Positions 38,189 to 43,724 are shown, counted from the first letter of the stretch. The stretch: 64,000 nucleotides of DNA from Phocaeicola sp. (GCA_029257865.1 JARIAN010000103.1:9776-73775), one strand, 5' to 3'. Translations and numbers: made by a program. Notes: generated from the letters alone by a model not told the origin.

Positions 38189-39052
38189 ATGATAATTAAT
38201 GAACAGCATTTAGATACATATACCCAAGGTACACCTTGTGTCAATTTCTATCTTGAAGAAGTTGATAGACTGAAAAATCAGAATAGACTACATCGTCATA
38301 ATTTCTTCCAGCTTATATTGCTAGAAGAAGGTAATATCGACCTGACTGTTGATTTTGAGCAGAATAAGATGGGACCGCAGTCCGCTTCTCTGTTATTCCC
38401 CCACCAGCTACATATTGCCAATATATCTTCAGATACCAAAGCATACGTGATTCTGTTTGATGAAACGGTTTTTTGCTCTGAAATATTACATAATGACCTG
38501 AAAGACTACAACATTGATTTACAAAAGCGCGTGAATTATGTTTCCTTTGAAAACAAGAAAGACATCTTTAGCGAGATAATCCATATATGGCATTCTATTT
38601 GTGACTTATATAAAGACTTTAATCTGGTGAATAAGATGCAGATTAAATTGTTTATCAAGATTATAATTATGAAGTTAATTAATGCATGTCCAGAAAAGGC
38701 TTTGGTCGCAACAGACAATGAAGACACCTCTTTATATATAGCTTTTAGAGAGATGGTAGACCGCGAATTTAAAGAGAACAGGATTGCAAGTTCTTATGCA
38801 AAAGACTTAAATGTCTCGGTTAAGCGCCTTACAGAAGTCTGCAGACATTTTTGCGGATTGACCCCCTTGGAAATCATCCATGAGAAACTTAACTTGGAAC
38901 TGAAGAAGACTTTAGCCATCGGTCACTTGAGCATAAAGGAGATTTCAATCGATTTCGGCTTTTCTTCTCAGGCAGCACTGAATAAATACGTAGAACAGAA
39001 ATTTGCAATGACACCAGTCCAATTAAAGAATAAACTACGAAATCAGCCATAA
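38189..39052 (+). CDS. AraC-family transcriptional regulator
   Basis: Has an N-terminal cupin-like sensor domain and C-terminal dual HTH motifs (SSYAKDLNVSVKRLTEVCRHFCGLTP...ISIDFGFSSQAALNKYVEQKF). Confidence 0.88.
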   Translation: MIINEQHLDTYTQGTPCVNFYLEEVDRLKNQNRLHRHNFFQLILLEEGNIDLTVDFEQNKMGPQSASLLFPHQLHIANISSDTKAYVILFDETVFCSEILHNDLKDYNIDLQKRVNYVSFENKKDIFSEIIHIWHSICDLYKDFNLVNKMQIKLFIKIIIMKLINACPEKALVATDNEDTSLYIAFREMVDREFKENRIASSYAKDLNVSVKRLTEVCRHFCGLTPLEIIHEKLNLELKKTLAIGHLSIKEISIDFGFSSQAALNKYVEQKFAMTPVQLKNKLRNQP

Positions 39053-39167
39053 AAGCAAATGTATAAATTATGGTAGATTTTGGATAACTTCAGTCCCGAT
39101 GGAATGCAGTACTTTTGCATTGTGATTAAGAAACAAACAATTAAACACTTTAAAACAACAAGTTATT

Positions 39168-40319
39168 ATGGCAAAATTGTATGGTTCTGGGACATTGTTC
39201 CATGGAAACGGTTCTCTAGAAGAATTAAAGACAATCAACAGCAAGAAAGCGGTTATCGTAACGGGGAAAGGTTCTACCACACGCAATGGCAGCCTCCAAC
39301 GCGCCGAAACTATGTTAGCTGAAATGGGTGTTGAATACAAGGTGTTCGAAGGAGTAGAGGCAGACCCTTCACTCGAAACCGTAAAGAAAGGTGCTGCTTT
39401 CATCTCTGAATTCGGGCCTGACTGGATTATCGGCTTAGGAGGTACTTCATCAATTGATGCAGCGAAGGCCATGTGGGTACTTTACGAACATCCTGATTTA
39501 ACTTTCGAACAACTAATTACTCCATTCGGCATTCCTGAGTTGAGAAAAAAGGCACGTTTCGCAGCTATCCCTTCAACAAGCGGTACTGGTACTGAAACCA
39601 CTTCTTTGGCAGTAATCACCGACCGTGAAAAGGGAGTGAAATATCCGTTGGCTTCTCACGAACTCCAACCGGACTTAGCAATCGTAGACGGTGACCTCTG
39701 TAAATCAATGCCGGCAGATATCACTGCAAATACAGGTATGGATGCCTTGACACATGCCATCGAAGCTTACACTTCGAATGTGGATGACAACTATGCAGAT
39801 GCATTTGCAAAAGGCAGCATACAATTGATTTTCGACAATTTGAAGAAGGCGACTGAAAACCTTGAAGACGGTGTTGTTCGTCAGAATATGCACGATGCCT
39901 CTGCACTTGCAGGATATGCATTTACAAATGCATGGTTGGGCATTGTACACTCTATGGCTCACCAGATGGGTGGTGTATTCGGCATTCCTCATGGCCGTGC
40001 CAATGCTTTGGCTCTTCCAAACGTAATGCGCTATAATGCTAAAGTAACTAATCGTTTCGAAGATTTGGCTAAACTGATTGGTCTGAATACGACAGGCGAA
40101 TTTATCACCGCCGTTGAAAATCTGAAGAAAGAAATCAACGTTCCTGCCTCTATCCGTGAATACGGTATCGAAAAAGATGCATGGATGAAAGAGGTGCACC
40201 GTATGGCAGAAAATGCATTCAAGGACGTATGTACTTCATTCAATCCTCGTAACACTTCGGTAGAGGACATTGAAAAACTTTACATCGCTTTGTACGAAGG
40301 TGAAAATATTGACTTCTAA
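39168..40319 (+). CDS. iron-containing (group III) alcohol dehydrogenase
   Basis: Contains GLGGTSSIDAAKAM and the His cluster DALTHAIEAY...HSMAHQMGGVFGIPHGRANA. Confidence 0.92.
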   Translation: MAKLYGSGTLFHGNGSLEELKTINSKKAVIVTGKGSTTRNGSLQRAETMLAEMGVEYKVFEGVEADPSLETVKKGAAFISEFGPDWIIGLGGTSSIDAAKAMWVLYEHPDLTFEQLITPFGIPELRKKARFAAIPSTSGTGTETTSLAVITDREKGVKYPLASHELQPDLAIVDGDLCKSMPADITANTGMDALTHAIEAYTSNVDDNYADAFAKGSIQLIFDNLKKATENLEDGVVRQNMHDASALAGYAFTNAWLGIVHSMAHQMGGVFGIPHGRANALALPNVMRYNAKVTNRFEDLAKLIGLNTTGEFITAVENLKKEINVPASIREYGIEKDAWMKEVHRMAENAFKDVCTSFNPRNTSVEDIEKLYIALYEGENIDF

Positions 40320-41418: not shown

Positions 41419-41471
41419 TAATAAAATAAACTATTACAGATTGTTATTTCAATAATCCTAAGTAAATATAT

Positions 41472-43724
41472 ATGATGAAAGATAAGATTCGGGTAATTGA
41501 TGCTACACAGAATAATTTGAAACATGTTTCGGTAGAAATTCCCAAGCATCAGATAACTGTAGTTACTGGCGTTTCAGGTTCTGGAAAAAGTTCTTTGGTA
41601 CTTGATACGATAGCAGCACAGTCAAGAAGAGAGTTGAACGATACATTTCCTAGTTTTACTCAACGATACCTTCCCAAATATGGAAGACCAGCGGTAGGCA
41701 GGGTAGAAAATCTTCCTCCAGCTATCGTAATAGATCAGCGCAAACCCTCGGGACAGACTCGCTCCACAGTAGGTACTTATACTGATATATACAGTCTGTT
41801 GCGTTTGCTATTCTCACGTGTAGGACAACCTTTCGTCGGATACTCCGATTCTTTTTCTTTTAATCATCCGCAAGGAAGATGTACAAGATGTGACGGACTT
41901 GGCGAGATTACGGAAATAGATGTGCACAAGCTTGTTGATTTTAATAAAAGTCTAAATGAAGAAGGTGTTATAAATTATGTAGCCTATGAGCCGGGGCAAT
42001 GGCGTTGGTTGTATTATGGTGCTTGCGGATTGTATGATCCAAATAAGAAAATCAAAGATTTTACACCTGCCGAAATGCACCTTTTTCTTTATCAGGAGCC
42101 AATGACATTAAAAAATCCTCCAGCCGATTATTACAAGAACGGCAAGTATGAGGGACTCATGTATCGCATGAATCGTATGTTGAAACGTGATGATGCAAAG
42201 GTACACTGGAAGAAACTGGAGCCGATTGTCACGCAGGGACCTTGTCCAGAATGTCATGGAAAACGATTGAATCCAAAGATACTTTCCTGTAAAATTTGTG
42301 GCAAAAACATTGCTGATATCACACAGATGCCTCTTCTAGAAATCTTGTCATGGCTAGATGGCATCGATAACCCTATAGCTGTTGATACGAAAGCTGCTTT
42401 ACGAAATCGTATCAATGCTTTAATCAATATAGGACTTGATTACTTGACGCTTGACCGTCCTATGGGTACGCTGTCGGGGGGAGAAGCGCAACGTTGTAAA
42501 ATTGCGAAATACAACAATTCGTCTCTCTCCGATATGTTATATGTTTTAGATGAACCCAGTGTAGGACTGCATAGCCATGATATTCATCGTCTGAGCAATG
42601 CCATCTTACAACTCCGCGACCGTGGCAACACCGTACTTATAGTGGAGCATCATAAAGAAATAATGGAAATTGCCGACCATATCATCGACATGGGGCCAGG
42701 TGCGGGAACTTTAGGAGGTGAGATTCTTTTTGAAGGCTCATATCAGCAGTTATTGCACAATGATACCCTTACCGGAAGGTTATTGCGAGAACATAAAGGA
42801 GTTAAATCCAATGTCCGTAAGGCCACAGGATGGATAGACATGAAAGACCTTTCTCTTCATAACCTAAAACATATAAATGCTAGATTTCCGAAAGGGGTAC
42901 TCATGGTAATTGCTGGTGTTGCTGGTTCTGGTAAAAGTTCGCTCATGCAGGCTCTTCATAATCAGATAGGGGATGAAGTCACTTTAATCAGTCAGAAAAG
43001 TATCGGTGCGAACTTGCGCTCTACTCCGGCGACCTATCTCGGTGTGGCTGATGACATCCGAAAAATGTTCGCCAAATCAAGTCGAGAAAAAGTCGGACTG
43101 TTTTCCTTTAATGGAGAAGGTGCTTGTCCTGTATGTCAGGGAAAAGGAGTCATCATATCGGAAATGGCTTTCATGGATTCCATCGAAACAGTCTGTGAGT
43201 CTTGCGGCGGTCTCCGCTACTCAAAGGAAGCACTTCAATATCAACTGAACGGATTAAATATTGCACAGACCATGGACTTGACAGTCAGACAGGCAAGTGC
43301 ACATTTCAATGGCACAATCATCGAACAAAAGTTAAAGTCTCTTGCTGATGTTGGTCTGTTTTATCTTCACCTGAATCAGGCTTTGTCTACTTTATCTGGG
43401 GGAGAATTGCAACGAATGAAACTAGCTTCTTACTTAAATCAATCAGGACAAATCCTAGTTTTGGATGAGCCAACCGATGGACTTCACTTGCAAGATGTCC
43501 AACATATCATAGAACTATTCAACAACCTTGTAGATAAAGGCAACTCATTATTTCTGATTGAACATAACCTAGAAGTACTTAAAGCAGCTGACTATGTGAT
43601 AGAAGTCGGTCCGGGAGGCGGAAATGAAGGTGGTAAAATCATATTTGAAGGGACACCTGAAGAAATGCTTTCAAACAAAGATTCGGTAACCTCTCCGTAT
43701 TTAAGAAATAGCTGTAAACTATAA
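41472..43724 (+). CDS. UvrA-like ABC ATPase lacking the UvrB-binding domain (class II UvrA / DrrC-Ecm16-like)
   Basis: 750 aa, with two ABC modules and Zn-finger CxxC pairs (CTRCDG, CPECHG, CPVCQG, CESCGG). It goes from LLFSRVGQPFVG directly to FSFNHPQGRCTRCDG. The canonical copy at 19731 has a ~150-aa insert at that point. Confidence 0.9.
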   Translation: MMKDKIRVIDATQNNLKHVSVEIPKHQITVVTGVSGSGKSSLVLDTIAAQSRRELNDTFPSFTQRYLPKYGRPAVGRVENLPPAIVIDQRKPSGQTRSTVGTYTDIYSLLRLLFSRVGQPFVGYSDSFSFNHPQGRCTRCDGLGEITEIDVHKLVDFNKSLNEEGVINYVAYEPGQWRWLYYGACGLYDPNKKIKDFTPAEMHLFLYQEPMTLKNPPADYYKNGKYEGLMYRMNRMLKRDDAKVHWKKLEPIVTQGPCPECHGKRLNPKILSCKICGKNIADITQMPLLEILSWLDGIDNPIAVDTKAALRNRINALINIGLDYLTLDRPMGTLSGGEAQRCKIAKYNNSSLSDMLYVLDEPSVGLHSHDIHRLSNAILQLRDRGNTVLIVEHHKEIMEIADHIIDMGPGAGTLGGEILFEGSYQQLLHNDTLTGRLLREHKGVKSNVRKATGWIDMKDLSLHNLKHINARFPKGVLMVIAGVAGSGKSSLMQALHNQIGDEVTLISQKSIGANLRSTPATYLGVADDIRKMFAKSSREKVGLFSFNGEGACPVCQGKGVIISEMAFMDSIETVCESCGGLRYSKEALQYQLNGLNIAQTMDLTVRQASAHFNGTIIEQKLKSLADVGLFYLHLNQALSTLSGGELQRMKLASYLNQSGQILVLDEPTDGLHLQDVQHIIELFNNLVDKGNSLFLIEHNLEVLKAADYVIEVGPGGGNEGGKIIFEGTPEEMLSNKDSVTSPYLRNSCKL

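Follow-up and report, generated by a model that had tools for sequence, protein, structure and literature searches.

UvrA paralogs that have lost the UvrB-binding domain, such as DrrC and Ecm16, shield antibiotic producers from DNA-binding antibiotics. To our knowledge, the function of such class IIa UvrA proteins has so far been demonstrated only as self-protection of antibiotic producers. Ecm16 confers resistance to echinomycin independently of UvrA, UvrB, UvrC and UvrD, requires ATP hydrolysis and prefers echinomycin-loaded DNA, and the only class IIa members of demonstrated function have reversible intercalators as their targets (PMC9328131). The present analysis concerns a block of five genes ending in a gene for a UvrA paralog of this kind, which is located at positions 38189-43724 of a 64,000-nucleotide stretch of DNA from Phocaeicola sp. 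(GCA_029257865.1 JARIAN010000103.1:9776-73775), hereafter called the window. The source genome (G000) comprises 2.9 Mb on 158 contigs. All five genes lie on the plus strand and encode, in this order, an AraC-type regulator, an iron-containing alcohol/aldehyde dehydrogenase (Fe-ADH), a YbaK-type aminoacyl-tRNA deacylase, a small nitroreductase and a short UvrA protein; the assignment to these families by an original prediction, made from the window alone, was borne out by Pfam and NCBIfam. On the evidence of sequence comparisons, the block is a candidate for a new mobile module by which gut anaerobes would tolerate a drug or toxin. The statement that this is not a described operon agrees with the literature searched, the coverage of which was incomplete and in which searches turned up no account of such a module and no comparable cassette reported from gut commensals or from mobile elements.

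The UvrA paralog of the block (750 amino acids, 41472-43724, plus strand) was assigned to the Ecm16/DrrC type by means of the TIGR00630 profile and alignments to solved structures. Ecm16 (PDB 7sh1) is its best solved relative, with 672 bits (E 6e-201) and a collinear alignment over residues 4-744, whereas canonical UvrA and Deinococcus UvrA2 yielded lower scores of 542 and 452 bits, respectively. The ABC_tran profile was matched with an E-value of 2e-23, and according to the alignments to 7sh1 and 2r6f the two Walker A motifs (GVSGSGKSS and GVAGSGKSS), the two signature motifs (LSGGEAQR and LSGGELQR) and the two Walker B motifs (VLDEPS and VLDEPT) are kept. The predicted lack of the UvrB-binding domain was confirmed, as TIGR00630 aligns only to model positions 1-118 and 266-923, leaving positions 119-265 unmatched, and the alignment to 2r6f skips from chain residue 139 to 262. 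Zinc module 1 is absent as well, there being no cysteine pair at the junction RVGQPFVGYSDSFSFNHP, and the CxxC pairs of zinc module 2 (CTRC and CPEC) and zinc module 3 (CPVC and CESC) are present. By its domains and motifs, the protein falls within the class IIa definition of PMC9328131. Additionally, the source genome contains two full-length UvrA genes, one of which is situated within the window at approximately 19749-22454. Judged by the residue ranges given in PMC5028390, uvrA1 and uvrA2 of Bacteroides fragilis are both full-length and represent a different matter from the UvrA paralog of the block. Elsewhere in the source genome, a canonical full-length uvrA gene is followed 20 nucleotides downstream and on the same strand by the native ybaK gene (contig C42:47138-50421, locus L001). 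A general linkage of uvrA and ybaK was considered and rejected, since ybaK orthologs from 17 other genera of the order do not show this adjacency, and the arrangement was treated as local. In a search with PADLOC, the C-terminal ABC module of the block protein (41472-43724) was matched by mad3 of the MADS system with 213 bits, which suggests that mad3 itself is UvrA-like.

The distribution of partner genes was surveyed in 80 genome loci fetched with the UvrA protein. This set was divided into 16 loci of the cassette clade with at least 77% UvrA identity, among which locus L051 was counted by the identity over its matched half, and 64 loci with at most 65% identity from rumen Bacteroidales, Bacillales and others. 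A gene was counted as partner when it was encoded on the same strand within 3.5 kb of the UvrA gene. Nitroreductase genes were detected at 12 of the 16 cassette-clade loci, YbaK genes at 10, Fe-ADH genes at five and genes for glyoxalase-family proteins at three, compared with none of the 64 outside loci for each of the four families. These data show that the linkage of nitroreductase and YbaK is specific to this UvrA clade, in varying combinations. Accordingly, YbaK, the role of which had been left unexplained by the original prediction, is a conserved partner and not a bystander. The class IIa UvrA is the constant gene of the block, nitroreductase and YbaK are the partners most often encountered, and AraC and Fe-ADH appear as additions on the Bacteroidales side.

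The arrangements encountered include YbaK-nitroreductase-UvrA, nitroreductase-UvrA-YbaK, YbaK-UvrA, YbaK-nitroreductase-MarR-DUF2871-glyoxalase/Ble-like-UvrA and ADH-UvrA-DUF4186, and the associated regulator is of the HxlR or MarR type in the Bacillota versions and of the AraC type in the Bacteroidota versions. In three Clostridia versions (L014:5904-6784, L015:6471-6944 and L153:4083-4971), the UvrA gene is immediately preceded by genes for a DUF2871 membrane protein and a glyoxalase/bleomycin-resistance-like protein. Another locus (L174:3696-7749) encodes a 70%-identical UvrA protein with Fe-ADH upstream and DUF4186 downstream, without nitroreductase or YbaK, and two Alistipes versions (L010:4903-5532 and L011:4398-5096) contain a second nitroreductase gene, the product of which has a lipoprotein-like signal sequence, upstream of YbaK-nitroreductase-UvrA.

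A maximum-likelihood tree placed the seven Bacteroidota cassette UvrA proteins as one clade with starred support, nested inside the Clostridia cassette sequences with support values of 96-100 and apart from the UvrA paralogs of rumen Bacteroidales. With the root assumed to lie on the Bacillales branch or at the midpoint, this nested topology points to one transfer from Bacillota to Bacteroidota. Moreover, a Shine-Dalgarno-like motif precedes the UvrA gene in nine of ten Bacillota cassette versions and in none of the seven Bacteroidota versions, so that the ribosome-binding sites are those typical of each phylum, a feature that is independent of bin labels. The paralogs encoded in the source genome (ADH 83%, AraC 48%, YbaK 37% and nitroreductase 32% identical) fit the joining of a Bacteroidales AraC-ADH pair to an imported YbaK-nitroreductase-UvrA unit.

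The order of the five genes, the loss of which outside this strain had been named as grounds for giving up the prediction, is kept well beyond the source strain, versions with only 72-74% DNA identity included. Altogether, four other diverged Bacteroidales versions with 72-92% DNA identity to the window block show the same gene order. The closest of them (L007), from a metagenome-assembled genome labelled Phocaeicola, carries the same five genes with 91.6% DNA identity at another genomic site; the homology spans positions 38161-43715 of the window only and is flanked in L007 by insertion sequence (IS) debris upstream and by DUF3467-rpsL-fusA downstream. Since ordinary genes of the window genome and L007 are only 68-82% identical, with 89.5% for the ribosomal str operon, the block is either younger than the split of the two species or was acquired twice. 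The versions in L008 (Alistipes), L009 and L148-L152, which are 72-74% identical in DNA, agree with the window block in gene order and closely in their end points, with the L009 copy cut within the ADH gene by the contig end, so that araC is not visible there. Loci L148-L152 contain an IS110-family transposase gene to the left of the block (213 bits at a cut-off of 140), an IS701-like transposase gene to the right, genes for MbpA- and MbpB-like mobilization proteins nearby and a gene for an HTH_17 protein or a tyrosine integrase (Phage_integrase) running over the end of the locus. For the UvrA protein of these loci (MBP7918837.1, labelled Prevotella sp.), 86 contigs are on record, and the collection lists it in 136 blocks. 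A metagenome contig with a 98%-identical UvrA protein consists of the block and little else, ending 51 nucleotides before araC and 243 nucleotides after the UvrA gene. No copy of the block was found in the plasmid collection. All five genes are intact, and the ratios of nonsynonymous to synonymous substitution rates (dN/dS) of 0.03-0.27, with 0.064 for araC against L007 and 0.16-0.27 for YbaK, indicate purifying selection on each of them. Judged from these comparisons, the five genes constitute a conserved, horizontally mobile block that is carried in L148-L152 as cargo of a mobilizable element.

In the window, the genes for a MATE transporter and a CMK-like protein are separated by 6.7 kb of DNA, comprising 872 bp of AT-rich non-coding sequence, the five genes and a further stretch of about 270 bp. 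The downstream CMK-like gene is a core gene of the genus, present in 57 of 60 congeners, and in 10 of the 16 fetched loci from congeners it comes directly after MATE at a distance of 57-250 bp, within an xseA-MATE-CMK(-PPK) backbone. In line with a sporadic distribution, DNA of the block was not detected in 24 congeners and 16 other genomes of the order, nor was a close homolog of the nitroreductase in 200 genomes of the same family representing 35 genera. The block thus lies in a horizontally acquired insertion between two core genes. The left non-coding part of the insertion, delimited by comparison with congeners, covers positions 37317-38188 with a GC content of 30%, and the right part extends from 43725 to 43990, with the resident promoter box of the CMK-like gene (TAAGTTTG) next at 43998. 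A copy of a dispersed repeat occupies the left edge of the insertion at roughly 37347-37840. At least 15 partial copies of this repeat occur on other contigs of the source genome, for instance C104:10766-11210, C62:30278-30651 and C86:307-611, with the conserved cores GCAATGTGTCAAAATGTATTT and AAATCATGCCGACGTTTTAGGGGAATCTTATAAGCATTTT; it had no match in Rfam and may mark junctions of accessory DNA.

The GC content of the five genes amounts to 35.6% for araC, 44.1% for the ADH gene, 38.6% for YbaK, 40.7% for the nitroreductase gene and 41.4% for the UvrA gene, at a value of 41.1% for the whole genome. The low GC content ascribed to the block therefore holds for araC only, and the spot values of about 30% for araC and about 37% for the UvrA gene on which it had been based were too low. 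Apart from araC, AT-richness is confined to the non-coding flanks within the insertion (about 30% GC), and base composition was dropped as a sign of foreign origin except for araC and these flanks.

With regard to the partner proteins, the first gene of the block (38189-39052, plus strand) codes for an AraC/XylS-family regulator of 287 amino acids with a cupin-type ligand domain (HTH_18, E 4e-13; AraC_binding, E 4.6e-5), whose best NCBIfam relative is HpaA with 84 bits, a score under the cut-off of that model. A paralog with 48% identity is encoded on contig C70 of the same genome. In the region C70:22321-24681, the gene of this paralog is divergently oriented to an open reading frame of 253 codons, followed by another of 175 codons that was used as nitroreductase-family seed, and the locus may be a native counterpart of the pairing of AraC and nitroreductase. 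The second gene (39168-40319, plus strand) encodes the Fe-ADH protein of 383 amino acids (ADH_Fe_C, E 7e-56; Fe-ADH, E 5e-45), which reached no equivalog cut-off of NCBIfam. This protein is 83% identical to a native paralog on contig C122 (C122:9048-10271), compared with 93-96% among the block copies. The native paralog gene is accompanied by the -7 box TACTTTTG and a classic hairpin terminator with U-tract, and a native ADH gene of this type is likely to be the kind of source from which the block ADH gene and its downstream hairpin were derived.

The YbaK/EbsC-type deacylase of 157 amino acids (tRNA_edit, E 5e-26) is encoded at 40417-40890 on the plus strand, within an open reading frame extending from 40357. 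The start at 40417 is the likely one, since the YbaK model aligns from residue 25 of the extended reading frame and positions 40357-40390 form a hairpin. Scored on the N-terminally extended open reading frame, the protein reached 148.1 bits with TIGR00011 at a cut-off of 153.25. Its best solved relative is the Cys-tRNA(Pro) deacylase of Haemophilus (1dbu, E 1e-22), the FKTLV lysine and the GGCSPFG loop are retained, and the gene represents a second copy whose product is 37% identical to the native YbaK. The fourth gene (40906-41418, plus strand) specifies a small flavoenzyme of the nitroreductase superfamily with 170 amino acids, which matched PF00881 with an E-value of 1e-20 and 74.9 bits, well above the gathering threshold of 23.5 bits. 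The best solved relative is a structural-genomics entry (3h4o, 89 bits), and a paralog in the same genome is 32% identical. The equivalog models of NfsA, NfsB and RutE were not reached by this protein (26-46 bits at cut-offs of 152-227).

The short gaps described for the block were reproduced as 97, 15 and 53 nucleotides for the last three intervals, and the first one measures 115 nucleotides instead of 116. Common strand, short gaps and conserved order give the five genes the layout of an operon. Since a scan for sigma-70 promoters and terminators is ill-suited to Bacteroidales and gave no more matches than in shuffled sequences, intergenic DNA was scanned for the Bacteroidetes-type -7 box TAnnTTTG. 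Such boxes were present only before araC (TATATTTG, 38142-38149, plus strand, 40 nucleotides upstream of the ATG) and before the ADH gene (TACTTTTG, 39110-39117, plus strand), and none precedes the genes for YbaK, nitroreductase or UvrA. The araC box lies just outside the stretch homologous to the other block copies, which begins at 38161-38187, and the ADH box is identical in every block copy and before the native ADH paralog. The spacer between araC and the ADH gene is strongly conserved across the block versions and contains a motif of 30 nucleotides (ATGTATAAATTATGGTAGATTTTGGATAAC, 39059-39088, plus strand) that was recognized in alignments of four diverged block copies. As this motif is absent upstream of the native ADH paralog on contig C122, it is regarded as a candidate AraC operator.

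The intergenic region of the ADH and YbaK genes contains a hairpin with a 14-bp stem (40357-40390, plus strand) that has a predicted free energy (dG) of -24.5 kcal/mol and a z-score of -4.5. Each of the five Bacteroidales versions has this structure, and where their stems differ, base pairing is largely preserved. The U-tract after it is weak and not clean. The hairpin may attenuate read-through, terminate transcription in part or stabilise the RNA. On account of this conserved hairpin, a single transcript of all five genes is uncertain. The terminator that had been described as closing the block was also recovered, as a strong terminator-like hairpin 3' of the UvrA stop codon at 43732-43776 on the plus strand (dG -21.3 kcal/mol, z -4.2), followed by UUCUUUCUUC. 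It is specific to the context of the window, since it lies outside the stretch homologous to the other copies. An Rfam search of positions 37000-44200 gave a chance match to a miRNA family only.

Taken together, we lean towards the view that the block is an inducible tolerance module against a redox-active compound that binds reversibly to DNA. Under this model, the AraC protein would sense an aromatic small molecule and activate the promoter in front of the ADH gene, and Fe-ADH and the nitroreductase would reduce a redox-active, DNA-binding xenobiotic, candidates being quinone, nitro, N-oxide or iminium intercalators. The UvrA paralog, unable to recruit UvrB, would resemble Ecm16 and DrrC in removing the reversibly bound compound from DNA at the expense of ATP, and YbaK would in some way protect translation. 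The choice of compound follows from two considerations: a UvrA protein that cannot load UvrB helps only against something displaceable, and aromatics of the quinone, nitro, N-oxide or iminium type would be fitting substrates of the linked reductases. Nitroreductases reduce nitroaromatics and quinones. The bleomycin-resistance-like partner in some versions points to the same reading. The original prediction of a module combining detoxification with DNA protection is partly supported, namely by the class IIa nature of the UvrA protein, the conserved order and the clade-specific partners, and its low-GC argument proved to be weak. A more far-reaching version, to which we attach little credence, would make YbaK a dedicated working partner of the class IIa UvrA protein, in a three-level unit spreading between phyla in gut communities by which the toxin would be chemically reduced, the DNA cleared and aminoacyl-tRNA proofread against a toxin-derived or toxin-modified amino acid.

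Several points weigh against such a tolerance module. Nitroreductases usually activate nitro drugs instead of detoxifying them. The partner set varies among the copies, some of which consist of YbaK-UvrA, nitroreductase-UvrA, ADH-UvrA-DUF4186 or UvrA alone. Transcription could stop at the hairpin between the ADH and YbaK genes, and a promoter box upstream of YbaK was not detected. The insertion in the window contains no mobility gene and no clear or convincing terminal inverted or direct repeats. Several partner families, namely the Fe-ADH, the glyoxalase family and HxlR, are as compatible with reactive aldehydes or quinones as with a drug, and the class IIa UvrA protein of Deinococcus has no clear phenotype (PMC9328131).

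The most serious of the alternative explanations, which we regard as possible but doubtful, is a module directed against reactive electrophiles, either aldehydes or quinones, and not concerned with drug resistance. Here, Fe-ADH would reduce toxic aldehydes (methylglyoxal-derived, formaldehyde-related or of the reuterin/acrolein type), the nitroreductase would reduce quinones or enals, the glyoxalase-family partners would handle methylglyoxal or hydroquinones and UvrA would deal with DNA lesions. YbaK would acquire a possible role as well, namely to clear aldehyde-modified aminoacyl-tRNA or tRNA(Pro) that carries a proline analogue derived from an aldehyde, for instance thioproline. The presence of a nitroreductase together with a glyoxalase- or dioxygenase-family protein in the Bacillota versions led by HxlR or MarR argues for this explanation, as does the recurrence of Fe-ADH beside this UvrA in three unrelated contexts, and the best NCBIfam match of the nitroreductase, although weak (E 3e-12), is to the aldehyde reductase RutE. 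On the other hand, a UvrA protein without the UvrB-binding domain cannot initiate the removal of covalent adducts by excision, a recent and very wide dispersal by mobile elements is more typical of antimicrobial selection, and the block proteins reached the cut-off of no aldehyde-specific equivalog model.

The five genes might also lack a joint function and be unrelated accessory genes co-captured on the same mobile DNA, with AraC-ADH and YbaK-nitroreductase-UvrA as separate units. The conserved hairpin between ADH and YbaK would agree with this, native Bacteroidales paralogs exist of both AraC and ADH, which seem to have been added later, and the partner content differs among the copies. This explanation is improbable with regard to the maintenance of the five-gene order at 72-74% identity under purifying selection on each gene and to the linkage of nitroreductase and YbaK to the UvrA clade in two phyla and several arrangements, without a counterpart at the 64 loci of other UvrA paralogs. 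Far less credible still is the assumption that the UvrA paralog serves as a spare sensor of nucleotide excision repair or as an ATPase of phage defence, with its neighbours being irrelevant. In PADLOC, the ABC modules partially matched mad3 (213 bits) and mad8, but the mad3 match covers only generic ABC/UvrA-like segments, the other four proteins had no PADLOC match and no other MADS component is encoded nearby. Classification as a defence system was rejected on the grounds that PADLOC gave only these partial ABC-module matches, and a role in excision repair is opposed by the missing UvrB-binding domain and by the two full-length UvrA genes already present in the genome.

A class IIa UvrA gene on horizontally moving DNA in gut commensals of two phyla, with insertion-sequence and mobilization genes beside it in the version recorded on 86 contigs, shows the pattern typical of acquired resistance genes. 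If the favoured tolerance module indeed affords protection from a compound that binds DNA or is redox-active, for instance a drug, feed additive, plant alkaloid or bacterial genotoxin, it would represent a new class of transferable tolerance determinant. Such a determinant would be missed by current resistance-gene catalogues, because the protein is annotated merely as "excinuclease ABC subunit UvrA", and it would offer a tractable system for the roles of class IIa UvrA proteins outside producers. The conserved link to YbaK is an unexplained lead in itself. Should YbaK be a true partner of the UvrA protein, the block would provide the first mobile UvrA-paralog resistance in a non-producer and a new role of YbaK.

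Compared with the described systems, parts of the block have clear counterparts. The make-up of the Bacillota versions resembles the quinone and aldehyde regulons of Bacillus subtilis that are controlled by YodB (HxlR/DUF24-type) and MhqR (MarR-type), as in these versions, too, a regulator of the HxlR or MarR type goes together with nitroreductase and a glyoxalase- or dioxygenase-family protein. We know of no UvrA paralog and no YbaK in these regulons, and the window block differs from them by using an AraC regulator and by having no glyoxalase-family gene. The block in L148-L152 resembles the mobilizable transposons of Bacteroides (NBU and Tn4555 type) in its position beside MbpA/MbpB-like, HTH_17 and tyrosine integrase genes with IS elements at both ends, whereas its cargo is not a known resistance gene and the window block is without an accompanying mobility gene. 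The block YbaK shares the sequence family, the lysine and the GGCSP loop with the free-standing Cys-tRNA(Pro) deacylase YbaK, but it travels with a UvrA paralog and scores just under the equivalog cut-off. The placement of the block is not that of a producer's self-resistance gene, as the neighbours of the UvrA gene encode AraC, ADH, YbaK and nitroreductase, the flanks consist of core genes or of IS and mobilization genes, and the cluster for a ribosomally synthesized and post-translationally modified peptide in the window lies 30 kb from the block. The block UvrA protein has the domain plan of Ecm16 (Streptomyces lasalocidi, echinomycin) and DrrC (daunorubicin) in common, with two ABC modules and zinc modules 2 and 3 but without either zinc module 1 or the UvrB-binding domain. 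In contrast to these proteins, whose genes protect antibiotic producers, it is encoded outside an antibiotic biosynthetic cluster, in gut anaerobes and on an insertion or a mobilizable element, its function is predicted from sequence, and its gene is linked to those for nitroreductase, YbaK and ADH.

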